Shown here: positions 1,646 through 41,365 of the stretch, one piece after another
Numbering within the stretch: position 1 is the first letter of the stretch
How the letters are laid out: each line of letters begins with the position of its first letter
The notes under the pieces: generated by a model
Told to the model about the DNA's origin: nothing
Seen by the model: only the letters and a program-made list of their open reading frames with translations
The model's database searches: none
Program-made: the position numbers and the translations under genes
NCBI GenBank assembly: GCA_964348415.1
Contig: CAYGCR010000002.1
Coordinates: 25,069 to 89,068, forward strand
DNA length: 64,000 nt
DNA from: an uncultured Ignavibacteria bacterium
GTDB taxonomy: Bacteria; Zixibacteria; MSB-5A5; SM1-73
Direction: 5' to 3'

Positions 1646-2423
1646 GATTCTCTTCTCGGAATTTCTACTGCCAATCATCCCCGCCTCAAATAGCAAAGCT
1701 TATGACTTCACTTCGGATTAACTAAAGGAGAAAGCTGGTTCCGCCCATGCACCACTAAGGCATTTCGGGAACAGATTTCGAAGGGGGACTAAGCAAAAAT
1801 TAGCAATTGTCGTGCCGACTCCATAGGCGCTTAACGAATTTGTTTAAGTCTTCTGCTTAACCCGTTTTACGAGAGAGGCTTAACAGGTCATTGGTAGGGA
1901 GGCGGTAGCTGGCGTTAGCCTGTCGAAAGGACGCGAAGTTATTGGATTGCTGCAACATTCTGTGGGCGACCAGCTAACATCTCTGATCACTACTGTTTCT
2001 TATCGAGATTGAGAAGAGATTCGGTGAGGGCATCAGCTGGGGGATTCTGAAGTAGAACAAAGACGAGAGGCAAGTGCGCGTAGACCAACGCCATGCCGAC
2101 CCGGACATCCGCTTGCGCCGGTAGTTGCCACATTTATGGGGCTCTCTTAGCTCAATGAATTGAGCACCTACGCGTCCTTTACGCACGATGCCCGCGTGAC
2201 GGGCGAATTTCCCGCCCCGGCTGGTGACAAGCGCCCTCACCCGGGACCACGCACATTGCAGGGTAGGGGTATGCCGCGATAACCGATCGACTCGTCTCCG
2301 GAACGAAAAATCCTCCGATTGATTCCATCTCGTTGGTACTTCTTTTCGTAAAAAACACGAAGATTTGACTTGACAGTTGTCGGTGAGCTTGTTATTTTTT
2401 TCACAAGCTTTGGCAGGAGGGAT

Positions 2424-2798
2424 ATGTTAGAAGTTTATTTTCCCATGTTCCTTTTGATCTTTGTAGTTATCGGAATGGCTCTCGCCATCTTGGGGCTTTC
2501 CTATCTCTTGGGCAGGAGAGTCCGCACCAAAGCCAAACTTTCCACCTACGAGTGTGGTAACGAGCCCTTTGAAGACGCCAGGGGAAGATTCTCAGTCAAA
2601 TTCTACTTAATCGCCATTCTCTTTATCATTTTCGACATAGAGGTTGTGTTTTTATATCCGTGGGCGGTCATATACAGAAAGCTGGGTGTTTTTGGCTTAA
2701 TTGAGATGGGGGTCTTCATTTTGATTCTTCTGGCAGGTTATTTCTATATCATCAAGAAGGGCGCCCTTAAATGGGAGGAGAGTGAGGAGATAACCTGA
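2424..2798 (+). CDS. nuoA: NADH-quinone oxidoreductase subunit A.
   Basis: Small 3-TM protein. The YECG-EPF motif-rich loop and the FLYPWAV segment are typical of NuoA/ND3. It is the first gene of the nuo cluster. An AGGAGG RBS sits 8 nt upstream of the ATG at 2424, whereas the ORF track begins at an upstream in-frame ATG at 2370. Confidence 0.85.
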   Translation: MLEVYFPMFLLIFVVIGMALAILGLSYLLGRRVRTKAKLSTYECGNEPFEDARGRFSVKFYLIAILFIIFDIEVVFLYPWAVIYRKLGVFGLIEMGVFILILLAGYFYIIKKGALKWEESEEIT

Positions 2799-2816: not shown

Positions 2817-3341
2817 ATGGGCTTGGAGGAATATATACCGCGAGGCATACTACTGACCGCCGTTGACAAGATGGTCAACTGGGCCAGGAGTTCATCTGTC
2901 TGGCCCCTGGCTTTCGGAACAGCTTGCTGTTCGCTAGAGGCGCTTGCCACATTCGCTTCCCGCTTCGACATGGCGCGATTCGGGATGGAAGTCTATCGGG
3001 CATCTCCCCGGCAGGCCGACCTGATGATCGTTGCCGGACGCGTTTCCAACAAGATGGCTCCGGTTGTCAGGACACTCTATGAGCAGATGACCGAGCCCAA
3101 ATGGGTGATAGCCATGGGCGCGTGCGCGTCCACCGGTGGCGTGTTCAACAACTACGCCATCATCCAGGGCGTGGACAAGATCGTGCCGGTGGACATATAC
3201 GTTCCTGGTTGTCCGCCCAGGCCGGAGCAGCTAATCGAAGGAGTGATGAAGCTGCACAAGAAGATTCAGCGGGAGTCGGTGAGAGGGCTTAAGGTACATT
3301 CGGTGCACGGATCAACGGACGAAACGGATCGAAGGATATGA
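2817..3341 (+). CDS. nuoB: NADH-quinone oxidoreductase subunit B (20 kDa, N2 cluster), copy 1 of a tandem pair.
   Basis: Carries the CCxxE, GxCA and PGCPP cysteine motifs of NuoB/PSST: [27 protein letters not shown]. Confidence 0.9.
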
Positions 3342-3385
3342 TTGAGTAGAAACAGGGCCAAAAGCTCACCTATCAGAAGGAAAAA

Positions 3386-3877
3386 GTGGGTTTAGAGGAA
3401 TACATACCGCGAGGTATACTTCTGACCACGGTCGAGAAGGCGGTCAACTGGTCGAGGAAGTCGTCGCTGTGGCCGGTCACTTTCGGGCTGGCCTGCTGCG
3501 CCATAGAGATGATGTGCACGGCCGCATCCCGCTTTGATCTGGCGCGCTTCGGCATGGAGATCTTCAGGGCTTCGCCCAGGCAGGCGGATTTGATGATCGT
3601 GTCCGGACGAGTTTCGAACAAGATGGCACCGGTGGTCAGGCTGCTTTACGATCAGATGGCGGAGCCCAAGTGGGTGATCGCCATGGGTGCCTGTGCATCC
3701 ACCGGAGGCGTGTTCAACAATTACGCCATCATCCAGGGAGTGGATAAGCTTGTGCCGGTGGATATCTATGTTCCCGGATGTCCACCCAGGCCCGAGCAGT
3801 TGATCGAGGGTATTATGAAATTACACTCCAAGATCATGAAGGAGTCGCTGAAGCGATCAATGGATGAAACGGACTAA
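3386..3877 (+). CDS. nuoB: NADH-quinone oxidoreductase subunit B, copy 2 of the tandem pair.
   Basis: GTG start with a GAAGG RBS. All three NuoB cysteine motifs are present ([22 protein letters not shown]). About 80% aa identity to copy 1, with many synonymous nucleotide differences. Confidence 0.9.
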
Positions 3878-3924: not shown

Positions 3925-4425
3925 GTGGCCAGTTTAATATTGACAAGATTAAAAGAGAAGTTTCTGGAGTCAATTCTCCAGAGCATTGACTTCAGAGGAG
4001 AATTGACGGTCGTGGTAAGGAAACAAGATATTGTGTCCGTTTGTACATTTTTGCGGGACGATACCGAACTCTCCTTTGATTTTCTTTCTGACCTTACCGC
4101 GGTCGATCATCTGAGTAGAAAGCCCAGATTCGACGTAATATACCATCTTTACTCATTGGATAAGAATCATCGATTGAGATTGAAAGTAGAAGTTGAGGAA
4201 GGCGCAAGCGTTCCCTCGGTCACCTCTATCTGGTGCGCGGCCAACTGGTTAGAGAGAGAAGTATTTGACATGTTCGGAATAAGATTCGACAATCATCCGG
4301 ACTTGAGAAGAATACTCATGCCTGAAGACTGGATCAGTCATCCGCTCAGAAAGGACTTCCCCTTGACACGAGAAGAGGTGCAGTTCACACATAACAAGAA
4401 TCGTCCTCCAAAAGTCGAAAGCTGA
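3925..4425 (+). CDS. nuoC: NADH-quinone oxidoreductase subunit C (30 kDa).
   Basis: Its position between nuoB and nuoD and its size (166 aa) fit the 30-kDa subunit family. GTG start. Confidence 0.85.
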   Translation: MASLILTRLKEKFLESILQSIDFRGELTVVVRKQDIVSVCTFLRDDTELSFDFLSDLTAVDHLSRKPRFDVIYHLYSLDKNHRLRLKVEVEEGASVPSVTSIWCAANWLEREVFDMFGIRFDNHPDLRRILMPEDWISHPLRKDFPLTREEVQFTHNKNRPPKVES

Positions 4426-4433: not shown

Positions 4434-5636
4434 TTGGGTCCGCAGACTTTAACCAAAATCCAAAAGGTGGGCAAGAACACCATGGTTCTGAACATGGGGC
4501 CCCAGCATCCGGCCACGCACGGAGTGCTACGGGTCATTCTGGAACTGGATGGAGAGACCATTGTCAAGGCCACTCCCGACATAGGATTCCTCCATACGGG
4601 CATTGAGAAGACCATGGAGGATAAGACCTACGCTCAAGTGATTCCTCTTACCGACAGGATGGATTATGTGGCCAATCTATCCAATAACTTGGCTTACCTT
4701 CTCTCAGTGGAAAAGCTTTTGGATATACAGGCTCCTCCCAAAGCTAAGGTTGTCAGGGTGCTCTTGACGGAGCTGACCCGTATCGCCAGCCATCTGGTGT
4801 GGGTGGGCAGCCATGCCATGGATATAGGCGTCCAGAGCATGATGATCTATGGTTTCCGGGAGAGGGAGAAGCTGCTGGACATATTCGAGCTGTGCTCCGG
4901 GCAAAGGATGATGACCTCTTATTTCAGAATCGGCGGCTTGGCGCAGGATATACCCGACGGGTTCGAAGAAAAGGTGAGGGAGGTTTTGGAAACCTTCCCC
5001 GGTCGAATAGACGATTACGAAAATCTTCTCACCAGGAATCGCATCTGGCTCAATCGAACAGTAGGAGTGGGCAAGATCTCGGCTGAAGATGCCATAGATT
5101 GCGGCGTATCAGGTCCCATCCTGAGGGCGTGCGGAGTGAAGTGGGACATCCGAAAATCCAATCCCTACTCCGGATACGATCAGTTCGAGTTTGACATCCC
5201 CACCGGAAAAAACGGCGACGTTTATGACCGTTACTTAGTCCGCATTGCGGAGATGAGACAGAGCTTGAGGATCGTCCGGCAGGCTCTGGAGAGCATCCCG
5301 GAAGGAGGCTTCGTGGCCCGGGTCCCCGGAGTTGTCCTCCCTCCCAAGGAGGAGGTTCTCCGCAACATCGAGGCTTTGATATTCCAATTCAAATTGGTGG
5401 TGGATGGTTTCTCGGCTCCGGTGGGTGAGGTCTATCACTCCATAGAGAGCCCCAAGGGAGAAATAGGATACTACATCGTCTCCGACGGATCCAACAAACC
5501 GTATCGAGTGAGAGTCCGGCCCCCTTGCTTTGTCAATTTAAGTGCTCTTCCCAAGATGATCGAAGGAAGGCTGCTGGCCGACGTGGTGGCCGTGATCGGA
5601 AGCATCGATATAGTGCTGGGAGAAATCGACAGGTAG
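4434..5636 (+). CDS. nuoD: NADH-quinone oxidoreductase subunit D (49 kDa).
   Basis: Contains the LNMGPQHPATHGVLR motif conserved in NuoD/Nqo4. About 400 aa. The TTG start at 4434 is an alternative to the ATG at 4479. Confidence 0.9.
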   Translation: MGPQTLTKIQKVGKNTMVLNMGPQHPATHGVLRVILELDGETIVKATPDIGFLHTGIEKTMEDKTYAQVIPLTDRMDYVANLSNNLAYLLSVEKLLDIQAPPKAKVVRVLLTELTRIASHLVWVGSHAMDIGVQSMMIYGFREREKLLDIFELCSGQRMMTSYFRIGGLAQDIPDGFEEKVREVLETFPGRIDDYENLLTRNRIWLNRTVGVGKISAEDAIDCGVSGPILRACGVKWDIRKSNPYSGYDQFEFDIPTGKNGDVYDRYLVRIAEMRQSLRIVRQALESIPEGGFVARVPGVVLPPKEEVLRNIEALIFQFKLVVDGFSAPVGEVYHSIESPKGEIGYYIVSDGSNKPYRVRVRPPCFVNLSALPKMIEGRLLADVVAVIGSIDIVLGEIDR

Positions 5637-5662: not shown

Positions 5663-6151
5663 TTGACCTATATGTTGAATGAGACGGCTCAAAAGAAGAT
5701 CGCGGAGTTGAAGGGCAAGTATCCTCAGAGGCGGAGCGCCATTCTTCCGGCCATGCACGTGGTGCTGGAGGAGGTGGGCTTCTACAATCGGGACATCGTC
5801 AAGCAGGTGGCAGGCCTTCTTGATCTCAGCGAGATGGAACTCAGCGAGACCCTTTCCTTCTATACCTACTTCCCCAAGGAAGGGGTGGGGAAATATCACA
5901 TTCAGGTGTGCACCAACGTCTCCTGCATGCTTTCAGGGGCTGAGCAGTTGGTGAGTTACTTAGAGGAGAAGCTGAAGATAAAGGTCGGCCAAACCACCGC
6001 GGACGGCCTTTTCACGTTAACCGCGGTTGAATGCTTGGGTTCGTGCGGCACGGCTCCGGTGATGCAGATAAATCAGGCATACTACGAGAACTTGACCAGG
6101 GCCAAGGTGGATGAAATAATCGAGGAGTTGAGAAAGCAGGGAGGTACGTGA
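5663..6151 (+). CDS. nuoE: NADH-quinone oxidoreductase subunit E (24 kDa, 2Fe-2S).
   Basis: Thioredoxin-like 2Fe-2S cysteines: CTNVSC and CLGSCGTAPV. Confidence 0.9.
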   Translation: MTYMLNETAQKKIAELKGKYPQRRSAILPAMHVVLEEVGFYNRDIVKQVAGLLDLSEMELSETLSFYTYFPKEGVGKYHIQVCTNVSCMLSGAEQLVSYLEEKLKIKVGQTTADGLFTLTAVECLGSCGTAPVMQINQAYYENLTRAKVDEIIEELRKQGGT

Positions 6152-6274: not shown

Positions 6275-7555
6275 ATGGAAAAGATCCTGTTCAAACATAT
6301 AGACGTTCCTGATCAACATAAGATCGAGACCTACATCAAAAATGGCGGCTATCAAGCTCTGCCTAAAGCTTTGAAGGAACACACCCCGGATCAGATAATT
6401 GAGATGGTCAAGACATCCGGTTTGAGAGGAAGGGGAGGGGCCGGTTTCCCCGCCGGGATGAAATGGGGCTTCGTGCCCAAAGACTCGCCCCATCCCAATT
6501 TCCTGCTCTGCAATGCTGATGAGGGGGAGCCGGGGACATTCAAAGACAGGGCTTTGATCGAGAACGATCCCCACCAGTTGATAGAGGGAATCATCATTGC
6601 CTCATACGCCATAGGAGCGCACCAGGCCTTCATCTACATTCGCGGAGAATTCTATTTTGAGGCCAAGAGACTGCAGGAGGCGATAGACGAATCCTATCGG
6701 AAAGGATATCTGGGAAAGAATGTCCTGGGATCTGGATTCGACCTGGATCTCGATATACATAGAGGAGGAGGAGCCTACGTCTGCGGAGAGGAGACATCTT
6801 TGATGGAGTCCATAGAAGGGAAAAGGGGAAACCCCAGACTCAAGCCTCCTTTCCCGGCCTCGGTAGGACTTTATAAAAACCCGACGGTGATAAACAACGT
6901 GGAAACCCTGTCAAATGTTCCTCACATCGTGTTGAACGGAGGAGAGTGGTATGCAAAGATCGGCACGCCCAAAAGCACAGGCACCAAGATATTCTCCTTA
7001 TCCGGTCACGTGAAGAAGCCGGGAAATTATGAGCTGCCCATGGGCGTCACCTTGCGAGAGCTGGTCTACGAGCACGGCGGGGGAATAAAGAATGATCGCA
7101 AGCTCAAAGCGGTGATCCCTGGGGGGGTCTCCACCCCGGTTCTGACGGCCGACCTTATTGACGTGAAGATGGATTTCGATTCCCTTTACGAGGCTGGATC
7201 GCTGTTGGGTTCTGGAGCTACCATCGTGATGGACGAGACCACCTGTATGGTGAAGGTGGCCTACCGCATCTCCAAGTTCTTCGAGCACGAGTCGTGTGGA
7301 AAATGTGTTCCCTGTCGAGAGGGAACCAGATGGATCAGACAGATCATGGAGAGGATTGAAAACGGAAAGGGTAGAGAGGAAGACATAGAACCTCTGCGGG
7401 ACATCTGCGCCAATATAGCCGGAAATACCGTCTGCCCTCTGGGCGATGCGGCAGTTATTCCGATCCAGAGCACCATTGAGAAATTCCGGGATGAATACGA
7501 GTATCACATAAAGCATAAGAAATGTATGGTCGATTTGGGCCAGAGATTTCTCTAG
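6275..7555 (+). CDS. nuoF: NADH-quinone oxidoreductase subunit F (51 kDa, FMN/NADH site).
   Basis: FMN-binding GRGGAGFP motif and a C-terminal 4Fe-4S CGKCVPCREG motif. Confidence 0.92.
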   Translation: MEKILFKHIDVPDQHKIETYIKNGGYQALPKALKEHTPDQIIEMVKTSGLRGRGGAGFPAGMKWGFVPKDSPHPNFLLCNADEGEPGTFKDRALIENDPHQLIEGIIIASYAIGAHQAFIYIRGEFYFEAKRLQEAIDESYRKGYLGKNVLGSGFDLDLDIHRGGGAYVCGEETSLMESIEGKRGNPRLKPPFPASVGLYKNPTVINNVETLSNVPHIVLNGGEWYAKIGTPKSTGTKIFSLSGHVKKPGNYELPMGVTLRELVYEHGGGIKNDRKLKAVIPGGVSTPVLTADLIDVKMDFDSLYEAGSLLGSGATIVMDETTCMVKVAYRISKFFEHESCGKCVPCREGTRWIRQIMERIENGKGREEDIEPLRDICANIAGNTVCPLGDAAVIPIQSTIEKFRDEYEYHIKHKKCMVDLGQRFL

Positions 7556-7590: not shown

Positions 7591-9765
7591 ATGGTAACTT
7601 TGACCATAGATGGAAAGCAGGTGACGGTGGAGGAGGGGACTACGATTCTCACGGCGGCGGAAAAGCTAGGCATTGAGATACCCACCTTCTGTTATCACGA
7701 CAAACTGGAGCCGGTGGGTGCCTGTCGTATGTGCTTGGTAGAAGTGGAGAAGATGTGGAAGTTACAGGTGGCCTGCGCAACGCCGGTGACGGAAGGGATG
7801 GTGGTGAAAACCGACACGCCCAAGGTGAAAGCTGCCCGAAAAGGCGTCCTGGAATTTCTGCTTATCAATCACCCGTTGGACTGTCCGGTGTGTGACAAGG
7901 GCGGAGAATGTGAGCTTCAGAACCTAGTCTTCAAATACGGGTCGGACAAAAGCAGGTATGTGGAGGAAAAAAGAAGGTTTGTGGTCGACCCGAAGTCCAA
8001 ATATGATGATCTTGACATCGGACCCCAAATAGTAAGAAATATGAATCGGTGCATACTGTGCAGAAAATGTGTTCGATTCATTAACGAGATCGGGCGAGAG
8101 ACCGATTTAGGCACCTTCGGAAGAGCAGCCAAATCAGAAATCAACGTCCTGCCCGACATTCCGGTAGACAATCCGTATTCGGGAAACACGGTGGAGATAT
8201 GTCCGGTGGGCGCTTTGACATCCAAGTCCTTTAGACACAAAACAAGAGTCTGGGAGTTGAAAGCCACGCCATCGGTTTGTCCGCTCTGCGCGGACGGATG
8301 CAATATCAACCTGTGGACCAAGGATGACCAGATCTATCGCATCACCTCAAGAAGAAACGATTTCGTGGATGAGGGTTTCTTGTGCGATAAGGGCAGGTTC
8401 GGATTCGAGTACGTGCATTCTCCCAACAGGTTGGAACATCCTCTGATAAGAGAGAACGGAAAGCTCTCGCCAACGGATTGGGACGAGGCAATCGAATTGG
8501 TGGCATCCAAATTGAAAACTATAAGGGAGCAATCCGGCGCGGATGCTCTGGCTGGGATAGGATCGCACAAACTCACCAATGAAGAGAGCTACCTTTTTCA
8601 GAAGTTCTTTAGAGTGGTGGTGGGAACTAATAACATTGATCATAGAATCCATTCAGAGCATGCCCTGCCAAATCCGGTTCTCAATAGCGGCAACCAGGTT
8701 CACGGCATGGTCAACTCAATCGCAGACATCGAAAAGGCTGGGATGATTCTCGTCCTGGGCTGTGACCTGGAGAAAGAGCATCCTATAGCGAACTTGCGAG
8801 TGATTAAGTCCGCCCGGAAAGGCAGCCTGTTGTTTGCGGCAAACCCGGAAAGCACTCGGCTAGGGCGATTCGCAAAGGACGAGCTGGTTTACAGTAAAGG
8901 CGCCGAGTCCGCCCTTCTGAATGGTTTGATGGAAGAGCTGGGAGAGAAAGGCCAGCAGCTCGACAAGTCCAACATGTCACAAAGGACAGGCCTCACTTTG
9001 GAAAGAATGGGCGATCTGGCCCAAGCTTTGGCAAAGGCCGAGAGCATAATCGTTCTCTGTGGCAAGGAAATCATCAGGCATCCTGACAGCGCGGAACTTA
9101 TCGGAAAGCTGCATAGGCTGATGCATCTGACCGGACAGGAGGACACGGATGGCAGCGGCATCAATCTCCTTTGGGAGGGCTGCAATTCCCAAGGTGCCTC
9201 GGATTGCGGTGTGCTGCCGGATAGGCTTCCAGGGTACGTGGATGTGGCAGACGACAGTTGGAGAGCCAAGGTTGCACAAGTCTGGCAAACGGCGATTCCA
9301 AGCAAGCCGGGACTGAATTTCAATTCGATGCTGCAAGGAGCCAACCAAGGCAAGATCAGAGCCATGTGCGTAGCAGGTGCGGACCCGGTGAGCGACAACC
9401 CCGACAAAGCTTACGCGGAGAATGCACTGGCGAAGCTTGATTTTATGGTGGTGCAGGATATCTGCTTGAGCGAGACGGCCAGGCTGGCTGACGTGGTTCT
9501 CCCCGGAGCTTCTTTTGCTGAAAAAGAGGGCACCTTCACCAACGTGGAGAGAAGGATTCAGAAGCTGGCTAAGGCCTTCGGTCCGATAGGAAACTCGAAA
9601 CCTGACTGGTACATCATCTGCATGTTGGCCCAAGTGCTGGGGCACGATTTCGATTACAATTCGCCTGCTCAAGTTTTCGAAGAACTGGCTAAGGTTTCAC
9701 CCGTTCATGCAAACCTGAGGTGGCAGGATTTAGGCGAGACGGGAAAACGCTGGGAAATAACTTAA
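7591..9765 (+). CDS. nuoG: NADH-quinone oxidoreductase subunit G (75 kDa).
   Basis: N-terminal 2Fe-2S ferredoxin cysteines (CYHDKLEPVGACRMC), the HPLDCPVCDKGGEC 4Fe-4S motif and a molybdopterin-oxidoreductase-like C-terminal region. Confidence 0.9.
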   Translation: MVTLTIDGKQVTVEEGTTILTAAEKLGIEIPTFCYHDKLEPVGACRMCLVEVEKMWKLQVACATPVTEGMVVKTDTPKVKAARKGVLEFLLINHPLDCPVCDKGGECELQNLVFKYGSDKSRYVEEKRRFVVDPKSKYDDLDIGPQIVRNMNRCILCRKCVRFINEIGRETDLGTFGRAAKSEINVLPDIPVDNPYSGNTVEICPVGALTSKSFRHKTRVWELKATPSVCPLCADGCNINLWTKDDQIYRITSRRNDFVDEGFLCDKGRFGFEYVHSPNRLEHPLIRENGKLSPTDWDEAIELVASKLKTIREQSGADALAGIGSHKLTNEESYLFQKFFRVVVGTNNIDHRIHSEHALPNPVLNSGNQVHGMVNSIADIEKAGMILVLGCDLEKEHPIANLRVIKSARKGSLLFAANPESTRLGRFAKDELVYSKGAESALLNGLMEELGEKGQQLDKSNMSQRTGLTLERMGDLAQALAKAESIIVLCGKEIIRHPDSAELIGKLHRLMHLTGQEDTDGSGINLLWEGCNSQGASDCGVLPDRLPGYVDVADDSWRAKVAQVWQTAIPSKPGLNFNSMLQGANQGKIRAMCVAGADPVSDNPDKAYAENALAKLDFMVVQDICLSETARLADVVLPGASFAEKEGTFTNVERRIQKLAKAFGPIGNSKPDWYIICMLAQVLGHDFDYNSPAQVFEELAKVSPVHANLRWQDLGETGKRWEIT

Positions 9766-9771: not shown

Positions 9772-10755
9772 ATGCTTGCGTTTATCATCATAACCTTGGT
9801 TAAGATAGCAGTGGTTCTGGTCGTTTTTCTGCTTCTGGTGGCTTACCTCACCTGGCTGGAAAGGAAGCTTCTGGGACACTTTCACGTCAGACTTGGTCCC
9901 ATGCGCGTAGGTCCTCACGGTCTGCTACAGCCCATCGCTGACGGCCTGAAACTCCTGTTCAAAGAAGACCTCATTCCGGCGAACGTAAACAAGTTTATGT
10001 ATAATTTGGCTCCGGTCCTGACCTTTGTCCCTGCCTTGATAATCGTGGCGGTTATCCCGTTCGGTAAAGAGTTTACGATCTTTGGGCGGCAGATAGATCT
10101 GGTGATTTCCAACTTCAACATGGGAGTACTCTACGTGCTTGGCGTCAGCTCCCTCGGTATATATGGGATGGTTTTAGCCGGGTGGTCTTCCAATAACAAA
10201 TACTCTCTTTTGGGCGGACTGAGATCGTCCGCTCAAATGATCAGCTATGAGATTTCCTTAGGTCTTTCCATAATCGGGGTTTTAATGCTCGCCGGGTCCT
10301 TAAGCTTGGTTGACGTGGTCAGTGCTCAAGATAATTTTTCTAACTGGTTCATCTTCCGTCAACCGCTTGCGTTCATCCTCTATTTAGTGTGCGCGGTGGC
10401 GGAGCTTAATCGTACTCCCTTTGATCTCACGGAGGCAGAAAGTGAACTGGTGGCGGGATACATGACCGAGTATTCGTCCATGAAGTTCGGCATGTTCTAC
10501 GTGGCGGAATACGGGAACATGATCAATCTGGCTGCGCTGTCGACGACCCTATTTCTGGGAGGCTGGCATGGTCCGTTCTTACCGCCGGTTGTGTGGTTCC
10601 TGGTAAAGATGGTCGCGTTCCTGTTCCTCTACATCTGGATAAGAGCCACCTTGCCCAGATTCAGATATGATCAGCTGATGAACTTCGGATGGAAGGTTCT
10701 GCTGCCTCTGGCGCTGCTCAATATTTTCATCACGGCAGTGATAATGGTCTTGTAG
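9772..10755 (+). CDS. nuoH: NADH-quinone oxidoreductase subunit H.
   Basis: Polytopic membrane protein with the conserved ND1 motifs: LERKLLGHFHVRLGP... and TPFDLTEAESELVAGY. Confidence 0.9.
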   Translation: MLAFIIITLVKIAVVLVVFLLLVAYLTWLERKLLGHFHVRLGPMRVGPHGLLQPIADGLKLLFKEDLIPANVNKFMYNLAPVLTFVPALIIVAVIPFGKEFTIFGRQIDLVISNFNMGVLYVLGVSSLGIYGMVLAGWSSNNKYSLLGGLRSSAQMISYEISLGLSIIGVLMLAGSLSLVDVVSAQDNFSNWFIFRQPLAFILYLVCAVAELNRTPFDLTEAESELVAGYMTEYSSMKFGMFYVAEYGNMINLAALSTTLFLGGWHGPFLPPVVWFLVKMVAFLFLYIWIRATLPRFRYDQLMNFGWKVLLPLALLNIFITAVIMVL

Positions 10756-11256: not shown

Positions 11257-11763
11257 ATGGAGATTCTGATCTTTTCTACACTGGCAATTGTTGCGGTGGT
11301 TTGTTCTGTTCTGGTTATCAGCCAGAGAAGCCCGATCGCAAGTGCCCTGTTCTTGATAGCCACCATGGTGAGCTTGGCCATATTGTTCTTGATGCTCAAC
11401 GCCCCGTTTTTGGCAGTTATCCAGGTCATCGTGTATGCAGGAGCCATTATGGTTCTGTTCATATTCGTCATCATGCTTTTGAATCTGAGACGGGACGAAT
11501 TCGGACCGGAAAAGAGAAAGGCCCAAAGGTTCTTTGCCATCCTGTTTGTGTTTCTGCTCTTGATCGGGATAGCCACGGTCATCGAACTGGGAGTGCCTGG
11601 TCTCAATCCGGTCCAGGAAACTTCTGAGGCAGAAGTACCCGCCAGCGTCGAGGCCTTAGCGCAGTTGTTGTTCACCAAATATCTCTTCCCATTTGAGCTG
11701 GCTTCGATCCTGCTTGTGGTCGCAATTGTGGGCGCCATCATAATGGCAAAGAGGAGATTGTAA
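11257..11763 (+). CDS. nuoJ: NADH-quinone oxidoreductase subunit J.
   Basis: 168-aa hydrophobic protein in the ND6 position of the operon. Confidence 0.8.
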   Translation: MEILIFSTLAIVAVVCSVLVISQRSPIASALFLIATMVSLAILFLMLNAPFLAVIQVIVYAGAIMVLFIFVIMLLNLRRDEFGPEKRKAQRFFAILFVFLLLIGIATVIELGVPGLNPVQETSEAEVPASVEALAQLLFTKYLFPFELASILLVVAIVGAIIMAKRRL

Positions 11764-12158: not shown

Positions 12159-14108
12159 ATGAATTACGTTTACTTAGTCCCATTATTTCCATTCATCGGT
12201 TTTGTGACAAACGGGCTTATGCGACTGTCTCAGAAGTCACCTTTCGAGGAAAAGAGTTGGGTGAAGGGTCTGGTAAGCTGGATAGGCTGCGGCTCAGTGG
12301 GCCTGTCATTTCTGACATCAGTTATCATATTCTTCCAACTTTTAGCTCTGCCGGCAGGGGAGAGGGTGGTGCAAAAAATCGCCTTCCCCTGGATTCTGTC
12401 CGGAGACTTTCATATAGACGTGGGCTTTCTGCTGGATCCTCTCTCCGCTGTCATGATCCTGGTGGTTTCCGGTGTGGGATTCATCATACACCTCTACTCC
12501 ACCGGCTATATGGCAGAGGATAAAGGATATGCCCGATACTTCTCGTACCTGAATCTTTTCACCTTCTTCATGTTGATGCTGGTCTTGTCCAACAATTTTC
12601 TGTTGCTGTATTTAGGATGGGAAGGCGTAGGCCTTTGTTCCTACCTCCTGATTGGTTTCTGGTATGAGAAAAAGAGCGCCGCAGATGCGGGAAAGAAAGC
12701 TTTTATCGTGAACCGAATCGGGGACTTCGGTTTTGCCCTGGGGGTGATACTGATTTTCTGGACCTTCGGCAGTCTCAACTTCGCAGACGTGTTCGACAAC
12801 GCTCCACATGTTCTGGCCGCGGGAGGGGGGCTGGTCACCGCCATGACCCTGCTTCTGTTTATGGGAGCCATCGGCAAGTCGGCTCAGATACCTCTTTACG
12901 TGTGGCTCCCGGATGCCATGGAGGGCCCCACTCCTGTGTCTGCTTTGATTCATGCAGCCACCATGGTTACCGCGGGAGTATACATGGTGGCAAGATGTCA
13001 CGCTCTCTTCATTCTGGCTCCCTTCACCATGGGGGTGGTGGCTGTGATCGGCGCTGCGACCGCCATGTACGCCGCGTCCATCGGCTTGGTGCAGAATGAT
13101 ATCAAGAGGGTGCTGGCGTACTCCACCATCAGCCAGTTAGGCTATATGTTCTTGGCCTGCGGAGTGGGAGCCTTCGCGGTGGGGATATTTCATCTTATGA
13201 CCCACGCGTTTTTTAAAGCTTTACTCTTCCTTTCCGCCGGGTCAGTCATGCATGCCCTGTCCGGCGAACTGAATATGCAGAAGATGGGCGGCTTGAAGAA
13301 ATACCTGCCGGTGACCTTCTGGTGTTTTCTTGTCGGAACTTTAGCCATCTCCGGCATTCCTCTTTTCTCCGGGTTCTTCAGCAAGGATGAAATCCTGTGG
13401 AGGGCATTCTCAAGCGAACAGGGCCACGCGGTCCTCTGGTTGGTGGGAGTGTTTACCGCAGGCCTGACCGCCTTCTACATGTTCAGATTGTTCTTCATGA
13501 CCTTCATGGGAAAATCCAGAATGGACCCACAGGTTGAAGCTCACGTGCATGAATCCCCGAAATCCATGACCATTCCTCTGACTGTCCTGGCGGTGCTTTC
13601 CGTCATCGGCGGCTACGTCGGTATTCCTGCGTCGCTGGGAGGGTCCAACCGGTTTGAGGGATTCTTGGCATCTGTGTTTGAGCCCGGTCATGCCGCCGCT
13701 CACGAAGTATCCCACCAGGTGCCGTCTGCAAAGTACATCCTGATGGTAATCTCCATAGCCGTGGTGCTGGTTTCCATTCTCGTGGCGTCGAGGTTCTACC
13801 TCAAGGACCTGGGGATTCCCAGGAGGCTGGCGGAAAGATACAGCTTCCCCTATCGGGTTCTGTTCAACAAATACTACGTGGACGAGCTTTATGCTGAAGT
13901 TGCGGTGAATCCGCTGCTCAACCTGGCCTTGTTCCTGTGGAAGCAATTCGACGTCCTGGTGATAGATGGCGCGGCCAATGGCATAGCTTACCTGGTCAAG
14001 GGAGTTGGCTCGGTGATAAGAAGGGCCCAGACTGGTTACTTGCGCAACTATGCTCTATCGTTGATATTCGGAGCTATGCTTATCCTGATTTACTTCGTCT
14101 TCAGGTGA
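12159..14108 (+). CDS. nuoL: NADH-quinone oxidoreductase subunit L.
   Basis: 649-aa ND5-type antiporter-like subunit with a long C-terminal extension, in the L position of the operon. Confidence 0.88.
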
Positions 14109-14112: not shown

Positions 14113-15720
14113 ATGGATAGCTGGATTTTGACCATACTTACGTTCTTCCCCATGCTGGGAGTGTTGGTACTGCTTTTCGTGGAAAAGGGCAGGCATAACG
14201 CCATCCGAACAATTGCCTTCATCGCGTCTTTGTTGAATGCTTTACTCTCGCTGTACGTGTATTTCGGCTTCGCCACCGATTCGTCAGCAATGCAGTTTTC
14301 CGTCAACAAGATTTGGATTGAGACTCTGGGAATCAGCTACCATCTGGGCATCGACGGAATAAGCCTGTTTTTGGTTCTGCTGACCACGTTTCTTACGCCC
14401 CTGGCGATTCTCTCCTCCTGGTCCGCTGTCACCGACAAGGTCAAAGGCTACTTCATCTCCATGCTGTTTTTGGAAACCGGGATGATCGGGGTCTTCGTCG
14501 CTTTGGATTTGTTTTTGTTCTATGTGTTCTGGGAACTCATGCTGGTTCCCATGTATTTTCTCATAGGTATCTGGGGCGGACCGAGAAGAATATACGCCAC
14601 CATAAAGTTCGTGCTCTTTACTATGACCGGCTCCCTTCTGATGCTGGTGGCGATATTGGTTCTGTATTTCATGAATCACAGCTATACCGGAGCATATACC
14701 TTCGACCTTTTCGAGATAACCAAGCTCCCTATTCCGTTGGGTGCGCAGTTCTGGCTGTTCTTTGCCTTTGCTTTGGCTTTCGCCATTAAGGTTCCCATGT
14801 TTCCGTTCCACACCTGGCTCCCGGACGCGCACGTGGAGGCTCCCACTGCCGGATCGGTCATTCTGGCCGGCGTGCTTCTTAAAATGGGAACGTACGGTTT
14901 CTTAAGATTCTGCTTACCCTTGTTCCCGAACGCATTCAAGGATTATGTTCCCTTGTTCTCAGTGTTGGCGATAATTGGCGTATTGTATGGTGCTTTAGTT
15001 TGCATAAGGCAAGAGGACGTGAAGAGTTTGGTGGCCTTCTCGTCAGTCAGCCACCTGGGCTTTGTGATGCTCGGTCTTTTTGCTCTTAACATTCAGGGGA
15101 TTGAGGGCGGCATTCTTCAGATGATCAATCACGGCATCTCCACCGGAGCGCTGTTTTTGATAGTGGGGATGATATATGAGAGAAGACATACCCGTCTGAT
15201 CGTCGATTTCGGAGGCGTATCCAAGAGAATGCCCGTTCTTGCAGCTTTCTTTATGATCGTTGCCCTTTCGTCCATCGGGCTTCCCGGAACCAACGGGTTT
15301 GTGGGAGAATTCACCATTCTTCTGGGCACGTTCAAGTCGAACGTGGCCTACGCTGTATTGGCGGCAGTGGGCATCATCTTGGCTGCGGTCTACATGCTGT
15401 GGATGTATCAGCGGGTGATGTTCGGAAAAGTCACAGACCCCGAAAATCAGAAGCTGAAAGATATCAACTGGCGGGAGAAGATGGTGTTGATACCTTTGAT
15501 CCTTGCTATATTCTGGATCGGTGTATATCCCAAGCCTGTCTTTACCAGAATGGGGCCTTCGGTGACGGCTCTGATAGAGAATGCCAAGACCAAGTATGAG
15601 GAAAACCGGCTCTTGCAAGCGGGCTCTCAGACAGATAAGCAAAGCACGGAATTCGAGGACCTGAAGGCTGAGACCGCGAATCCTGGTTTGGAAGGCCCGG
15701 AAGGATCAGGAGAAATGTAG
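14113..15720 (+). CDS. nuoM: NADH-quinone oxidoreductase subunit M.
   Basis: 535-aa ND4-type antiporter-like subunit. Confidence 0.88.
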
Positions 15721-17175
15721 ATGGATTGGACCTTTCCAGCGATCAATCTCAAACTTATTCTGCCGGAGATCATCCTCTGCGTCTTCGCCATCCTGATCAT
15801 GCTTCTGGATCCTTTCCTCTCCAAAGGACGGAAGATGATTTCGGGCCACATCGCCTGGGTAGCCATAGTGCTGGCATTTTGGGCCAACCTCAGTCTCTGG
15901 GACCTTCAGGAGGCGACCCTCAGTGAGATGTTCCTGGTAGACAACTACGCAACCTTCTTCAAGTTCATCTTCCTGGCCGGATCATTTCTGATAATCTTCG
16001 TCTCCATGAATTATCTGAAGAGGGAAGAGATTCTGCACGGGGAGTACTTCAGTTTGATTCTGTTTTCTACTTTAGGAATGACGCTTTTGGCATCTGGCTT
16101 TGACCTGGTGATTATCTTCCTGGGTCTGGAGATCATGTCGGTTTCGCTCTATGTCTTGGCGGGATTTAAAAGAGAAGATTTGAACTCCAACGAGGCGGCG
16201 TTGAAATACTTCTTAATGGGGGCTTTTGCAACAGGATTCTTACTGTACGGCATCGTGATGATTTATGGAAGCACGGGAAGCACCAACTTAGAGCAGATAA
16301 TCAAGAGCATCGCTTTTGGCGGAGGCAGTCCCAATCTGTTGATCTGGGCTGGAGCGGGATTGCTTTTGGTGGGCTTCGGATTTAAGATAGCCTCAGTTCC
16401 TTTTCACATGTGGGTGCCGGACGTGTACCAGGGGGCTCCGACTCCGGTAACTGCTTTCATCTCTGCCGGGCCGAAGGCGGCAGGATTTGCAGCGCTGTTA
16501 AGGGTATTCCTGTTCTCTTTCGTAACCATAAAGCTCGACTGGACCGTCATTGTGTGGATCATGGCAGCTTTGACAATGACGGTTGGAAACGTTATTGCCA
16601 TAGCTCAATCCGACATCAAGCGCATGCTGGCATATTCGTCCATCGCGCACGCCGGCTACGTGCTGATAGCGTTGGTAGCTGGGGGAGAAAGTGGAATCTC
16701 CAGCGCACTCTTTTATCTTTTAGCGTACACCTTCATGAACATTGGGGCTTTCACCGTGGTGATTGCACTGGGAAGGAAAGGTGAGGAGAACACTGGTCTG
16801 GACGACTATTCGGGGCTTGGCACCAGATCTCCGCTTTTAGCCGTCGTCATGTCGGTCTTCATGTTTTCGTTGGCGGGATTTCCTCCCACCGCCGGATTCA
16901 TGGGGAAATTCTACGTGTTCAGTGCGGCGGTGAAGTCGGGATTCGTAGGACTGGCCATAATTGGAGTTCTGAACAGCCTGGTCTCGGTTTACTACTACTT
17001 GAGAGTTGTGGTGGTCATGTTCATGCAGCCTCCGCCAGCCGAGACGCAGCGGGTTCCGGTGGCGTTTGGCGCGGGACTGGTCCTTTTAGTTTCTGTCTGG
17101 GGAGTTCTTCATTTCGGCATATTCCCCGATAGGCTGCTCAACCTGGCTCAAGCGTCTGTTTCCTCCATATTCTAG
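15721..17175 (+). CDS. nuoN: NADH-quinone oxidoreductase subunit N.
   Basis: 484-aa ND2-type subunit. Its start codon abuts the nuoM stop. Confidence 0.88.
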   Translation: MDWTFPAINLKLILPEIILCVFAILIMLLDPFLSKGRKMISGHIAWVAIVLAFWANLSLWDLQEATLSEMFLVDNYATFFKFIFLAGSFLIIFVSMNYLKREEILHGEYFSLILFSTLGMTLLASGFDLVIIFLGLEIMSVSLYVLAGFKREDLNSNEAALKYFLMGAFATGFLLYGIVMIYGSTGSTNLEQIIKSIAFGGGSPNLLIWAGAGLLLVGFGFKIASVPFHMWVPDVYQGAPTPVTAFISAGPKAAGFAALLRVFLFSFVTIKLDWTVIVWIMAALTMTVGNVIAIAQSDIKRMLAYSSIAHAGYVLIALVAGGESGISSALFYLLAYTFMNIGAFTVVIALGRKGEENTGLDDYSGLGTRSPLLAVVMSVFMFSLAGFPPTAGFMGKFYVFSAAVKSGFVGLAIIGVLNSLVSVYYYLRVVVVMFMQPPPAETQRVPVAFGAGLVLLVSVWGVLHFGIFPDRLLNLAQASVSSIF

Positions 17176-18319: not shown

Positions 18320-21300
18320 CTAGGTTTGCATCCGCTTAATCTGTTCCATCCGTTGACCACTCTGACGCTTTCTCTTCTTGAACTCTCTGGCCTGGTGCAT
18401 GAAAGCCTCTAGGCGGGTTATTTCGTTGACGTCCTCCAGACCCTCGTAGGCCAAGTTAAGCCAGGGTACGTTGTCGAAATCCTCCCGGATTTTCTTTGAG
18501 ATAGCGGTGACTACAGTTCCGGGCATGCAGGCAAAGGGCATGGTGTTGACGATTCCAGAAAGTCCGTGGTCGATGTAATCGATGGCTTTCCCAACCGAGA
18601 GTATGGCTTCGCCGCCGAAGGATTCGTGCAGATAAGGGCTGGCCAGTTCCAAAATGTGCTCAATACCGGGTTCGTGGCCCTCCAGAATTGATCCTTCCAG
18701 CCTTTTCTCCAGCCGGTATTCTTTTCCTCTCTGGATCCGGTCGGTTAACCAGCCTTTTGCGTAGTCTTTGTAGCTTCTCTTAAGGAGGCTTAGCCTTTTG
18801 TACATGTAGGTGGTATAGTTGATCCATTCGGCCATCCCCGCCACCCATGCTTCTCCTCCCAGAGCCTCAATTTTTCTAACGAGGCTATTGTTGGAAAACC
18901 TGTTGGACCTTATGTAGATCTCTCCCACCACTCCGATGATCGGCTTCCTCTTTTCTCTATCCATTTCAATTTTGCGAAACATGTGCTTCGCCCAGGTCAG
19001 AGTCTCCTCGATGTCACCTTTGGATCTGATGGTTCTGGCCAACTGTTCCAAGCACCGGCGGTGGACCCGGTCGGTCTCACCTTTTTTCTTTTCATAGGGT
19101 CTGTTCTGATGCAGAAGCTTTGCCAGAAGATCTGTTGTCACCATCCCCTTCCACGCTAATTTGCGAAAATCACCGTCGAGGTTCGAAACAGTGGAATAAG
19201 AATCCTTGGAGTCCGGGGAGACAATCGGAACGTTAGGATAACCCATCTCATCCAGTATCACGCGGTGCAGGTTATGATACTGGCCGAATCGACAAGGACC
19301 GTTGGCCTTGGGCATGAAGAAGGCGACCTTATCTGCGTCTACTTCTGGTTTCCTCAGAAACTTGAGAAGATCGCCCGTGGTCAGAATGCAGGGGTAGCAT
19401 TCTTTTCCGGTGGTGAACTTCCTTCCCAGAATAAGTGTTTCCTCATCCGATTCGTCCATTACGTGAGCTTCCTGCCCACACGCTTCCAGAGCGGCTTCGA
19501 ACGATAAGGCATGATCACACATATAGGGGATATACAAAGTCCTGTGATTTTCAGACACAGCGATTTTGTATTTTTGTGCAGGTGGCTTCTTGTCGTATGG
19601 AGGCCGGTATTTCTTCAGGCTGTCCAAGAAAGCTTCGCAGCGGGTGATAACACCGGCGTCTGCAGAATGCTCATCCAGCTCGATCTGAAGATAAGGTTTG
19701 CCACACACATTCTTCCTGAAGAAATGAGTGATGAAAGAATCGGGACCACACCCGAAATTGGTTACATACAACCCGAAAAGGTTTTTGTGCATTTTGAGGA
19801 CTTCGGATGCCGCCAGAATCTTCTGCCCGTATTTCCAGTACATGTTAGGCAGATGGTCCCTTTTGATTTGAGGATCATGGATCAGGAAATCCATTGGAAT
19901 CGCCGGGGCGCCTAAGTCCGCAAGCTTTTTGGGTAGATTCAAGCTGAGTTCAAGATCGCAGGTGTTGTAGGGTCTTCCCACAATCACCAAAGCCTTCTGA
20001 TTCTCCTGCAGGTCTCGTAAGACCTCTTTCCCTTTTAAGGCTAGCCTTCGGTAAAACTCCTCCTGACAGGCTTCGGCCTTGAGCATGGCTTGAGCTATCT
20101 GTCTTTTTGTCCTCTTCAGCTCGCTTCCCAGCCTGGCGAGCGTCTTCAGAAGAATGCCCCTGTCCAGTTGGAAATATACCGGAAAGGAAATCAAGCGAGT
20201 CGAGTAATCTTCAAGATTTATGGCAGCTTTCATGACGTACGGCAGGGACTGCACATAAGGACAAGCATAATTCTCCTGATTGTGGTCATCCTCCTTTTGC
20301 ATGTTAATCAAGCTGGGGATGAAAATATAGTCCACTTTTTTGTTCAGGAGATTCAAAACGTGCCCGTGTGCTACCTTAACCGGAAAACAGCTTTCGGAAA
20401 GAACCTGTTCCGCACCCTGGCGGATGATCTTTTTGTTGGTCGGGTCGGAGAGCACCACCTCAAAGCCCAGCTCCTCGAAGAAGGTGGCCCAGTACGGGAA
20501 GAATTCGTACAAGAAAAGCGATCGGGGGATTCCGATCTTTTTCCTTGTTGTGGTCTTCAAACCAACTTGAGAGGATACAAATTCCTTGTGAAGGTTGAAG
20601 AGTATTCTCTCTCTTTCTCTAAACAGATCAGGAATGCTCGGTCTTTTGGATTTTCTTTTGGTGTCGTATTTTTCGCAACGGCTTCCATAGAATAGAGGCC
20701 GTTCACCCTCGACCTTGACCTCTTTTATCTCGCAGCGGTTGGGGCAGTCAGTGCATTCGAAAGTGGAAATGGAGTATTGCTTTTCAGACAGATCGAATCC
20801 CTTAAAGCTACTTTTGCCGCCCTTATACTCTTCCATGGCCAAGATGGCAGCACCTATGGCACCGGTTACATCATGATGAGGAGGAACGGTAACCTTTTTG
20901 CCGATAACCTCCTCGAAGGCAGCCACCACCGCTTTGTTCCAAGCTACCCCACCCTGGAAGAAGATGTGGTTACCCACCCTTTTGTCACCGACGACCTTAT
21001 TCAGGTAATTGTAGACTATCGAGCAGGCCAGACCCGCCACCAGGTCCTCTTTAGGAATGCCACTCTGCTGATGCGCCACAAGATCAGATTCCATGAAAAC
21101 CGTACAACGCTCGCCACAGTTGACCGGGCACCTGGATTTAAGCGCTAGATCCCCGAATTCCTCCTCAATATTGATGGACAGCTTTTCCGCCTGCTCTTGC
21201 AGGAACGATCCCGTTCCGGCCGCGCATACCTTGTTCATTTCGAAATCTACAACTGCTCCATCCTGCAGGCTGACATACTTTGAATCCTGCCCTCCAATCT

Positions 21301-33111: not shown

Positions 33112-33960
33112 TTGAAGCCGAGAGGAATTATGCAACCCGGTTCGCAAGTGGACGAGAGAATCTCTAAGTGTGAAGAGATTCTGTCTCGTAATCCTAAGTC
33201 TGTGATTTTCGCGGCTCTGTCGGATGCCTACCGCAAGAAGGGAGATTTGGCCAGGGCGTTCCATATTTGCGGCCAAGGATTGAAATCTCATCCCGACTAT
33301 GGCCCGGGGCATCTGGTGATGGCGAAAATCAACATGGAAAGAGGGATGTACTCGGAGGCAGAAAGGGAACTGGCCCTGGCGGTCCGGGCAGATGGGAAGA
33401 CGAGAGCCACGGAGCTTCTTTTAGCTCAGATTTTAACAAAGAGGGGTCAAATAAAAGGGGCCAAGAAGATCTTGGAAAAGCTCAGAACCAGTGATCCAGC
33501 AAATGAGCTGATCGGTGAGCTGCTGGAGAGCATAAGGCAAAAAGAGAAATCAGACAAGCCCAGCCGTGCCATGGCAGCGGTGGATGAACGATGGCATATC
33601 GAGAAGGTCGCGGACCTTGAAGATGGCGTACACTGTTTGAAATCCTTGCCCGGGGTAATAGGAGCTCTGGTGATAGGAGAGGACGGATCAGTAATGGAGA
33701 GCAAGGTCAAACCTGAACTAGATCCAGAGGTGCTGGCCGCAATCGCCAACAGCATCACCGGATGTGTCAAGAACGGGATATCCGACGTGGGGTTTGGGGA
33801 ATATGCCGACATCTTGGTGGAAACTGGAAATCTCCAGCTGTGGATTACAGGTTTGAAGGAGACGTCTCTACTGTTATGTTGTGACCCCGAAACCAATATG
33901 GGGGCCTTGAGAATAAAAGTGACTGAACTTGTGGGACATATCTGGGGAAATGATGCATAA
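33112..33960 (+). CDS. TPR-repeat / Roadblock-LC7 (MglB-like) fusion protein.
   Basis: The N-terminal ~140 aa are TPR-like, with AYRKKGDLARAFHICGQGLKSHPDYGPGHLVMAKINMERGMYSEAERELALA. The C-terminal ~100 aa carry a Roadblock-like pattern: IGALVIGEDGSVMES...AAIANSITG...ADILVETGNLQLWITGL. Confidence 0.65.
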   Translation: MKPRGIMQPGSQVDERISKCEEILSRNPKSVIFAALSDAYRKKGDLARAFHICGQGLKSHPDYGPGHLVMAKINMERGMYSEAERELALAVRADGKTRATELLLAQILTKRGQIKGAKKILEKLRTSDPANELIGELLESIRQKEKSDKPSRAMAAVDERWHIEKVADLEDGVHCLKSLPGVIGALVIGEDGSVMESKVKPELDPEVLAAIANSITGCVKNGISDVGFGEYADILVETGNLQLWITGLKETSLLLCCDPETNMGALRIKVTELVGHIWGNDA

Positions 33961-33974
33961 AAAAGGGGAGTAAA

Positions 33975-34916: not shown

Positions 34917-34917
34917 C

Positions 34918-35268: not shown

Positions 35269-35300
35269 AGCTCACCCAAGCCGCCAAAGGGAGATAGAAG

Positions 35301-36275: not shown

Positions 36276-36288
36276 ACAGAGTGGAGGT

Positions 36289-38646: not shown

Positions 38647-38773
38647 GCAGTCAGTAGGAATAGGCGAAGCCAAGGGGAACAGGAGGTCAGGTTTAAGAAT
38701 CGGTATGCCGGGTCGATAATATATATGAAAGTGGCCCTCCTTTGGCTTTGAAAAGGAAAAGTGGGGATAAAAG

Positions 38774-39868: not shown

Positions 39869-40019
39869 CTGGAAGAGGCGAGGCTATACTATACAGAGAC
39901 ATGACTTGCAGTGGAGGGTAGCTAAAGGAGCGCCGATGTATGGTTGAAGGCACCGGATCGGGCTCTGGTTAAGGTATTCAGGCTTTGGCGGTAACGTTTT
40001 CTGAGGGAAGGAGGACAAA

Positions 40020-41219: not shown

Positions 41220-41365
41220 ATACAACCTGACTGCGCTGAGCAAGTCAAAAATACATCTAACCTAACCTTGCACCACTGCGGCTCTTAGCGGTGGTGTAAG
41301 TTTTTAAGCATTTTTAGGTTTCAAATCCTGAACAGTTTCTTATTACGTCCGGAAAGCGAATCCGA

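Follow-up and report, generated by a model that had tools for sequence, protein, structure and literature searches.

Within complex I, NuoB carries N2, the cluster from which electrons finally pass to quinone, and makes up one wall of the quinone site. It is still debated how quinone specificity, inhibitor sensitivity and the N2 potential are set by this region. Paralog swapping is already known in relatives of complex I, as is the duplication of nuoM within an operon. In cyanobacteria, NDH-1 variants (NDH-1L, NDH-1MS and others) are formed by swapping NdhD and NdhF paralogs on a common core, and one core complex with alternative paralogous subunits thereby gives functionally different enzymes. 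In the 2M-type complex I of Nitrospira and others, an extra nuoM in the operon is thought to add a pumping module. Paralogous NuoBs also occur within one genome in two-operon complex I isozymes (nuoB1/nuoB2 or nuo/nuo2), as in Sinorhizobium, Streptomyces, Legionella and Nitrospina; these isozymes are encoded by whole or partial operons at different loci, which can be regulated separately. Zixibacteria have been described as versatile, facultatively respiring bacteria that possess more than one complex I, and for Zixibacteria RBG-1 a 14-subunit and an 11-subunit complex have been reported, whose NuoB paralogs coexist, presumably in functionally distinct enzymes (PMC3903129).

The locus described here lies in a window of 64 kb, meaning the whole stretch of DNA that was analysed, and differs from the two-operon isozymes in that nuoB alone is duplicated, in tandem and in one operon, with the 13 other subunits in common. 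As in the cyanobacterial variants, alternative paralogs would be fitted to one core, whereas the swapped part would here be the apparently co-transcribed N2/quinone-site subunit and not membrane antiporter-like subunits from separate, differently regulated loci. As in the 2M-type complex, a core-subunit gene has been duplicated within the operon and long retained in one lineage; the window, however, holds a single nuoM, and no position for a second NuoB is known in the structure of complex I, so the two NuoB copies would have to be alternatives to each other. Searches of the open-access full-text literature turned up no published tandem nuoB pair and no published Zixibacteria NuoB paralogs, and every use of the names nuoB1/nuoB2 that was found concerned genomes whose nuo operons are separate.

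The duplicated nuoB genes and their operon

The window carries the gene order A-B1-B2-C-D-E-F-G-H-I-J-K-L-M-N on the plus strand, ending at 17175, and this order is also found in relatives. Two intact nuoB reading frames are present, 44 nt apart, and nuoA and nuoC to nuoN were each recovered once with Pfam and NCBIfam, in agreement with the earlier note, which had described two complete nuoB genes inside an otherwise canonical operon. The genes are as follows:

2424..2798, plus strand: nuoA, 124 aa (Pfam PF00507, E 1e-38); ATG start and length as in relatives
2817..3341, plus strand: nuoB1, ATG start, 174 aa; derived NuoB paralog (PF01058, NF005012 and TIGR01957 above cut-off)
3386..3877, plus strand: nuoB2, GTG start, 163 aa; canonical NuoB (PF01058, NF005012 and TIGR01957 above cut-off)
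3925..4425, plus strand: nuoC (PF00329, E 1e-51)
4434..5636, plus strand: nuoD, single (PF00346, E 8e-121); quinone ligands H29, Y78 and D130
5663-6151, plus strand: nuoE, NADH-oxidising module (Pfam)
6275-7555, plus strand: nuoF, NADH-oxidising module (Pfam)
7591-9765, plus strand: nuoG, NADH-oxidising module (Pfam)
9772-10755, plus strand: nuoH (Pfam, NCBIfam)
stop at 11234, plus strand: nuoI (Pfam, NCBIfam); the mechanical start at 10689 is probably too far upstream
11257-11763, plus strand: nuoJ (Pfam, NCBIfam)
stop at 12108, plus strand: nuoK (Pfam, NCBIfam); the mechanical start at 11791 is probably too far upstream
12159-14108, plus strand: nuoL, one copy (NCBIfam)
14113-15720, plus strand: nuoM, one copy (NCBIfam)
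15721-17175, plus strand: nuoN, one copy (NCBIfam)

The start of nuoA is most likely the ATG at 2424 and not the mechanical TTG at 2370, and the nuoI and nuoK genes of relatives are annotated with lengths of 144-150 aa and 100 aa, respectively. The GTG start of nuoB2 corrects the earlier note. Within the 64-kb window there is no second set of nuo genes, and nuoB is the sole duplicated nuo gene; with one nuoL, one nuoM and one nuoN, the operon holds no second nuoM of the 2M type. The remainder of the window is chromosomal housekeeping DNA, including genes for the F-type ATP synthase, the type IV pilus, SMC and FtsY.

The two proteins are 77% identical over 171 columns, with a single 8-residue gap in the C-terminal tail (BLASTP), and 81% identical across the first 156 codons, which makes the earlier figure of about 80% a fair one; the C-terminal tails differ as had been quoted. 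Both copies score far above the curated cut-offs of PF01058 (27 bits), NF005012 (116) and TIGR01957 (142.7), with 107, 250 and 231 bits for NuoB1 and 109, 258 and 240 bits for NuoB2, respectively. Against solved bacterial NuoBs in the PDB, both show 60-68% identity (E 1e-67 to 1e-70), and the NuoB fold is therefore beyond doubt. An alignment confirmed that all four cysteine ligands of N2 are kept in both copies: C37, C38, C103 and C132, corresponding to C45, C46, C111 and C140 of Thermus Nqo6. These cysteines are invariant in 26/26 B1-type and 96/96 canonical sequences, both window copies included.

In comparison with canonical NuoB/Nqo6/PSST (NDUFS7), both copies are thus full-length, carry the four N2 ligands and lie between nuoA and nuoC, in the window and in relatives. 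B2 is canonical in all respects examined, including the Met-Met at positions 50 and 51 (Thermus Nqo6 numbering) after the tandem cysteines. B1 has Ala-Leu there, thereby lacking both quinone-pocket methionines, and three further neighbours of the tandem cysteines are replaced. Because Leu, Phe or Tyr is found at position 50 in functional NuoBs that are the only copy, B1 is, judged by its sequence, still a NuoB, a divergent member rather than a non-member, and Met50 and Met51 are typical of the family but not absolute. In the NCBI annotation, two B1-type proteins (P0017 and P0020) are named 'subunit B family protein' and not NuoB. A further difference from the canonical situation is the presence of two copies in one operon: among the matches listed, 80/80 species-representative genome loci carry a single nuoB when 5 kb to each side is included, in a set that is mostly Actinomycetota, includes two Zixibacteria and one GN15 genome, and serves as a control rather than a census. 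On this set, the tandem nuoB was rejected as a general feature.

Age and distribution of the pair, and loss of B1

The nucleotide sequences of nuoB1 and nuoB2 are 76% identical over the aligned codons, and identity at third codon positions is 56%. With the Nei-Gojobori method, dS is 1.37 (near saturation), dN is 0.126 and dN/dS is 0.09, which bears out the many synonymous differences remarked on earlier and supplies the dN/dS check between the copies. These values (dS > 1 and third-position identity of 56%) rule out a recent duplication or gene conversion. The 5' end of the pair is better conserved, and synonymous differences occur in it at about the average rate. When the window was compared with pairs from four other genomes, dN/dS was 0.044-0.092 among B1 orthologs, 0.038-0.088 among B2 orthologs and 0.06-0.14 for B1 versus B2 inside one genome. 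The pairwise divergences of B1 and B2 run parallel across genomes; for example, L083 and L087 (listed below) are 95.5% identical in B1 and 92.3% in B2, and the window and L082 are 84.6% identical in B1 and 85.3% in B2. Parallel divergence and low dN/dS together mean that the copies have long been co-inherited, each constrained independently.

Eight distinct lineages, assembled independently, share the order nuoA-B1-B2-C, with B1 always upstream of B2. The tandem pair was found at the following loci:

CP070839.1 (L082): a 2.56-Mb Zixibacteria chromosome record
L083 and L084: two JGI metagenomes
L085 and L086: GCA_049679185.1 and a Logan contig
L087: JGI 3300041075
L092: JABAOC010060815.1
L094: Ga0180436_10000029
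L095: JGI 3300067986

Wherever the DNA downstream of a B1 can be read, a canonical B2 adjoins it. A motif scan of metagenomes gave at least three loci, two of them further tandem pairs and one (L093) an unrelated orphan NuoB/NdhK-like gene. As the product of metagenome assembly, the window might in principle hold a single nuoB in two strain variants wrongly set side by side. This explanation is effectively refuted. The same two genes are present on a separate 5.9-kb NCBI contig (JABAOH010115087.1) that differs from the window at 4/5880 positions, the same arrangement is shared by seven further lineages from different samples and sources, and the two copies differ at 24% of nucleotides, with sequences that are distinct and consistent within the clade. 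The earlier argument for an old duplication under purifying selection, as opposed to an assembly artefact, is upheld by a dS of about 1.4, by dN/dS of 0.04-0.09 within each paralog lineage and by the recurrence in relatives.

The closest homologs are annotated as Zixibacteria. Among the best 120 protein clusters (90%-identity clusters), 26 carry the B1 signature. The B1-type sequences are monophyletic in 200/200 bootstraps of a neighbour-joining tree of these short proteins and are nested in the Zixibacteria-type NuoBs; the mean root-to-tip distance in this tree is 0.365 for the B1 clade versus 0.277. The question raised earlier, whether one copy is xenologous, is mostly answered by this nesting and by the co-divergence of B1 and B2: the pair looks like a lineage-specific duplication more than a distant import, as far as a neighbour-joining tree can tell. 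GC and GC3 of both copies are in, or near, the range spanned by the remaining nuo genes, and a foreign origin of either copy is unsupported.

Four very close relatives (L088-L091) have the same upstream flanking genes and a single canonical nuoB. In a neighbour-joining tree of NuoD, these single-copy genomes fall inside the tandem group, with L083/L087 as sister and with L085 and the window branching earlier. Since the single-copy genomes are nested in the tandem group, the pair is ancestral to the clade and B1 was lost at least once. In the NuoB tree, B1 is grouped with single-copy relatives at only 25% bootstrap, too little for an interpretation. Altogether, by its sequences, nuoB1/nuoB2 is an ancient tandem paralog pair specific to one Zixibacteria clade.

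Substitutions next to the N2 ligands of B1

What escaped the earlier note is the asymmetry of the divergence and its concentration at quinone-site residues. Diagnostic sites were defined as residues present in at least 85% of one group and at most 10% of the others, for 26 B1-type and 96 canonical sequences. In this column-by-column comparison, B1 has eight diagnostic substitutions and B2 has zero. In Thermus Nqo6 numbering, which is the B1 position plus 8, the substitutions are T40A, L43T, A47S, M50A, M51L, L60M, I151V and M/Q159R. The first five of these are inside 12 residues that include the tandem cysteines, a clustering with P 0.003-0.006 against random placement. The corresponding segments in the window are:

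2910..2945, plus strand: nuoB1 codons 32-43, the tandem-cysteine N2 ligands and five clade-fixed substitutions
3479..3514, plus strand: nuoB2 codons 32-43, the canonical N2 and quinone-pocket segment

Ser47, Ala50 and Leu51 are present in 26/26 B1 clusters; seven of the eight B1 states are found in at least 25/26 clusters and the eighth in 24/26, despite a dS above 1. Residues 61-68 of B1 (Nqo6 69-76), which line the Q cavity and contact NuoH, are unchanged save for three Ala-to-Pro replacements at one position. Position 50 is Met in 96/96 canonical relatives and in the NuoBs of Thermus, Mycobacterium and E. coli. Among 133 diverse sequences, each representing a cluster at 50% identity, Met occupies position 50 in 86%, against 10 sequences with Leu and one with Ala, and position 51 is Met or Ile in 98%, with Ile and Val as natural variants; the combination Ser47/Ala50/Leu51 is absent from these 133. 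The sole NuoB of Planctomycetota and Bradymonadales has Thr43 together with Leu, Phe or Tyr at position 50, and changes like those in B1 are therefore compatible with a working enzyme.

Could the two copies nevertheless be functionally equivalent, kept for dosage or robustness, with differences that are neutral drift? Purifying selection is similar on both copies, and the loss of B1 has been tolerated in one lineage, as would be expected under redundancy. We regard it as quite unlikely, in view of the eight fixed differences in one copy against none in the other, the concentration of changes at otherwise conserved pocket and N2 positions, and the near-fixation of the B1 states across 26 clusters. 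In addition, redundant tandem copies are usually homogenised or lost and are not kept apart for so long.

The roles of the changed residues are taken from the literature, and structural roles were transferred to B1 from papers on other species. In a genome survey, the N-terminal stretch of NuoB was found to contain the N2 ligands and most of the quinone-chamber residues contributed by NuoB, and Met51 was mapped among inhibitor-resistance sites (PMC4758237). The two methionines, 'Met1' and 'Met2' of NDUFS7, have been tabulated as quinone-site residues (Met50/Met51 in Thermus, Met90/Met91 in Yarrowia and Met69/Met70 in mouse), and Met91 of Yarrowia is directed at the middle of the ubiquinone head group (PMC9503403). 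Met70 of mouse NDUFS7 faces the ring of piericidin when this inhibitor is bound; in Yarrowia, variants at Met91, the equivalent of Leu43 in B1's own numbering, increase the KM for Q1 and Q2, change Vmax little and make the enzyme resistant to DQA and rotenone (PMC7567858). The quinone cavity is bordered by the Nqo6 strand P38-F41, which shifts upon quinone binding (PMC7434922). In mites, the adjacent substitution H92R in PSST leads to resistance to complex I acaricides (PMC5569037). The Yarrowia and mite variants affect the same short helix after the tandem cysteines as the B1 changes and alter ligand binding at the quinone site. They are point mutations in an only copy, whereas B1 is a separate, ancient and probably co-expressed paralog with extra changes beside the N2 ligands. 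A canonical subunit and a variant have here been kept side by side for a very long time, with a small fixed set of changes at the N2/quinone spot, and the five residues around the tandem cysteines form a compact list that can be tested in model enzymes.

Two NuoBs, proposed to compete for one position in complex I

For the expression of the pair, the following features were identified:

2370..2398, plus strand: candidate sigma-70-like promoter upstream of nuoA, with TTGACA, a 17-nt spacer and TATTTT, and TG before the second hexamer; 10/12 consensus matches; a pattern match only
3342..3385, plus strand: B1-B2 spacer, 44 nt, with a purine-rich ribosome-binding stretch (AGAAGGAAAAA) ahead of the GTG start, as read from the sequence

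In a consensus scan, the candidate upstream of nuoA was the sole good sigma-70-like site, and between B1 and B2 neither a plus-strand terminator nor a convincing promoter was found. The spacer is not conserved (44 nt in the window, and -10, 43, -10 and 25 nt in relatives), and in L082 and L085 B1 runs 10 nt into the beginning of B2. An internal promoter or terminator for separate regulation was considered and rejected on these grounds. Because of the missing intergenic terminator and promoter and the 10-nt overlaps in relatives, nuoB1 and nuoB2 are probably co-expressed rather than transcriptionally switched. Isoform switching or an extra role for one copy had been proposed earlier. Regulated switching is not borne out by the intergenic DNA, and two alternative isoforms are the part of that proposal that we infer to be the best reading, because the fixed changes of B1 sit in the quinone-pocket/N2 segment.

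On this evidence, we lean slightly towards an explanation in which B1 and B2 are alternative NuoBs that compete for one site in complex I, with B1 altering the quinone pocket and the surroundings of N2. Both genes would be transcribed along with the rest of the one nuo operon, and as complex I has a single NuoB position, the two proteins would most likely compete during assembly, giving two populations of the same enzyme. B2 is the conserved, ancestral-type subunit. B1 is predicted to retain all that is needed for binding cluster N2 and for docking onto NuoD and NuoH, while replacing five residues next to the tandem-cysteine ligands. Two of these replacements, Met50 to Ala and Met51 to Leu, change the methionines with which the NuoB wall faces the quinone head-group pocket. 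Beside the ligands, two hydroxyls are gained (Leu43 to Thr and Ala47 to Ser) and one is lost (Thr40 to Ala), and these changes could also shift the N2 potential. Complex I with B1 would therefore be expected to differ in its affinity for quinone or inhibitors, in the midpoint potential of N2, or in both. Such a complex might benefit a facultative respirer by matching a different quinone pool or other redox conditions, or it might evade quinone-site toxins. That two forms of complex I are routinely built and coexist, differing only in the N2/quinone-site subunit and with one tuned to another quinone or to reverse electron flow, is a more tentative proposal and seems rather doubtful.

Three points count against alternative, competing NuoBs. 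Co-transcription offers no obvious way to choose between the isoforms. B1 is dispensable in some settings, as it was lost in a nested lineage with the same flanking genes. In addition, both methionines vary in nature, with Ile or Val at position 51 and, in some phyla, Leu, Phe or Tyr at position 50, so that the effect of the B1 changes may be smaller than it looks. In favour of the explanation, there is a single partner subunit NuoD, in which the quinone ligands His29, Tyr78 and Asp130 are kept (His59, Tyr108 and Asp160 of mouse NDUFS2 in the alignment), and the residues of the head-group site are identical in tandem and single-copy genomes; a compensatory change in NuoD at this site was thereby rejected.

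A related explanation is that B1 is a toxin-resistant spare that replaces B2 in complex I, driven by escape from natural quinone-site inhibitors made by competitors. The resistance of Yarrowia Met91 variants to DQA and rotenone (PMC7567858), that of mites with PSST H92R to acaricides (PMC5569037) and the mapping of NuoB Met51 with inhibitor-resistance sites (PMC4758237) all fit such a role, and constitutive co-expression would suit a standing insurance copy. It is nonetheless unlikely as the driver, since inhibitor escape leaves the hydroxyl changes L43T, A47S and T40A near the N2 ligands unexplained and since the operon, in a window of housekeeping DNA, has no toxin-biosynthesis or resistance genes beside it. 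No polyketide, non-ribosomal peptide or similar toxin-biosynthesis genes were seen in the window, and the flanks are housekeeping genes; the absence of a toxin cluster leaves room for resistance to the toxins of other organisms.

It also appears improbable that B1 acts outside the NuoB site of this complex I, whether in another complex (the 11-subunit complex I or a hydrogenase-related one), as a factor for assembly or for iron-sulfur delivery, or as an additional subunit. B1 is always part of the 14-gene operon, with nuoA immediately before it and B2 immediately after, in some cases with translational coupling to B2, and B2 adjoins every B1 whose downstream DNA can be read. B1 also scores as a full-length NuoB and keeps conserved stretches along the Q cavity and at the contact with NuoH, such as residues 61-68. 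Such a role would be in line with the type Zixibacteria genome, for which two complex I operons have been reported, one of them for an 11-subunit complex (PMC3903129), with the 64 kb over which the present genome is viewed, and with the NCBI label of P0017 and P0020.

If B1 and B2 are indeed alternative, competing subunits, the pair would represent, to judge by the literature searched, an undescribed diversification of complex I, in which the catalytic iron-sulfur subunit is swapped and not the antiporter-like subunits or a whole operon. Two genes in tandem would then form a natural 'quinone-site isoform' system, in which evolution has already run an experiment on the NuoB residues that set quinone specificity and the N2 potential. 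The finding is real, conserved and mechanistically suggestive, and it is confined to one uncultured clade. For genome annotation, this means that two neighbouring nuoB genes are genuine in these lineages and should be neither merged nor flagged as errors. In CP070839.1 the operon seems to be split behind a shortened nuoC, which is due to a run of 100 N in the record and is not biology.

Probable order of changes in the derived NuoB paralog

An early-branching form of B1, the derived NuoB paralog, is represented by the protein P0029 and by the tandem-bearing locus L092 (JABAOC010060815.1, 1023-1544, minus strand). In this form, Ser47, Ala50 and Leu51 (Thermus Nqo6 numbering) are already in place, yet Leu43 is retained (FGLACCSFEALA), which suggests that the pocket changes in B1 are older than the L43T change.

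In an unrelated context, a further example of a residue other than Met at position 50 was observed in a contig from the metagenome motif scan:

L093 (contig Ga0180438_10004711), 9878-10660, minus strand: orphan divergent NuoB/NdhK-like gene, 260 aa

The encoded protein is 56% identical to B1, carries the motif GLACCTFEAFA and has long extensions at both the N- and the C-terminus. No nuoA, nuoC or nuoD adjoins this gene.

NuoD residues and the nuoC gap

In mammals, the quinone tail is framed by a pair of NuoD residues, which are Phe167 and Phe168 in mouse. The equivalent codons 137-138 of the window nuoD (4434-5636) encode Met-Ile, and close relatives have Leu-Val, Leu-Ile or Ile-Met at this pair; therefore, this part of the tunnel is variable within the clade.

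In the chromosome-scale Zixibacteria record CP070839.1, nuoC is seemingly truncated and the operon seemingly split because a run of 100 N (11451-11550 of locus L082, taken from this record) lies inside nuoC. A biological rearrangement was rejected as an explanation, as the N stretch reflects either missing or masked sequence in the database entry.

Other genes and repeats in the window

Across the whole 64 kb window (1-64000), no tRNA genes and no Rfam families at the gathering threshold were found. The following features were annotated outside the nuo operon:

18320-22573, minus strand: gene encoding 1417 aa, immediately beyond the 3' end of the nuo operon and on the opposite strand
33112-36825: MglA/MglB-like gene cluster (Roadblock/LC7-domain proteins, a small Ras-like GTPase and a TPR protein)
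36955-43225: type IV pilus genes pilB, pilT, pilC and pilS
43482-43564 and 44177-44259: 83-nt direct repeat, copies 77% identical
44644-45089: tandem array, 4 units of 112 bp (TRF score 680, 87% matches)

The 1417-aa protein contains two acyl-CoA dehydratase activase modules (BcrAD/HgdC-type ATPase), and the MglA/MglB-like cluster adjoins the type IV pilus genes. The direct repeat, which contains inverted-repeat arms, brackets an ORF of unassigned function (43588-44001, 137 aa). The tandem array is located in the gap separating the PilS-like kinase gene from the ATP synthase operon; short palindromes are present in every unit (CATTGCGAG ... CTCGCAATG), and ORF translations spanning the array contain recurring peptide strings.
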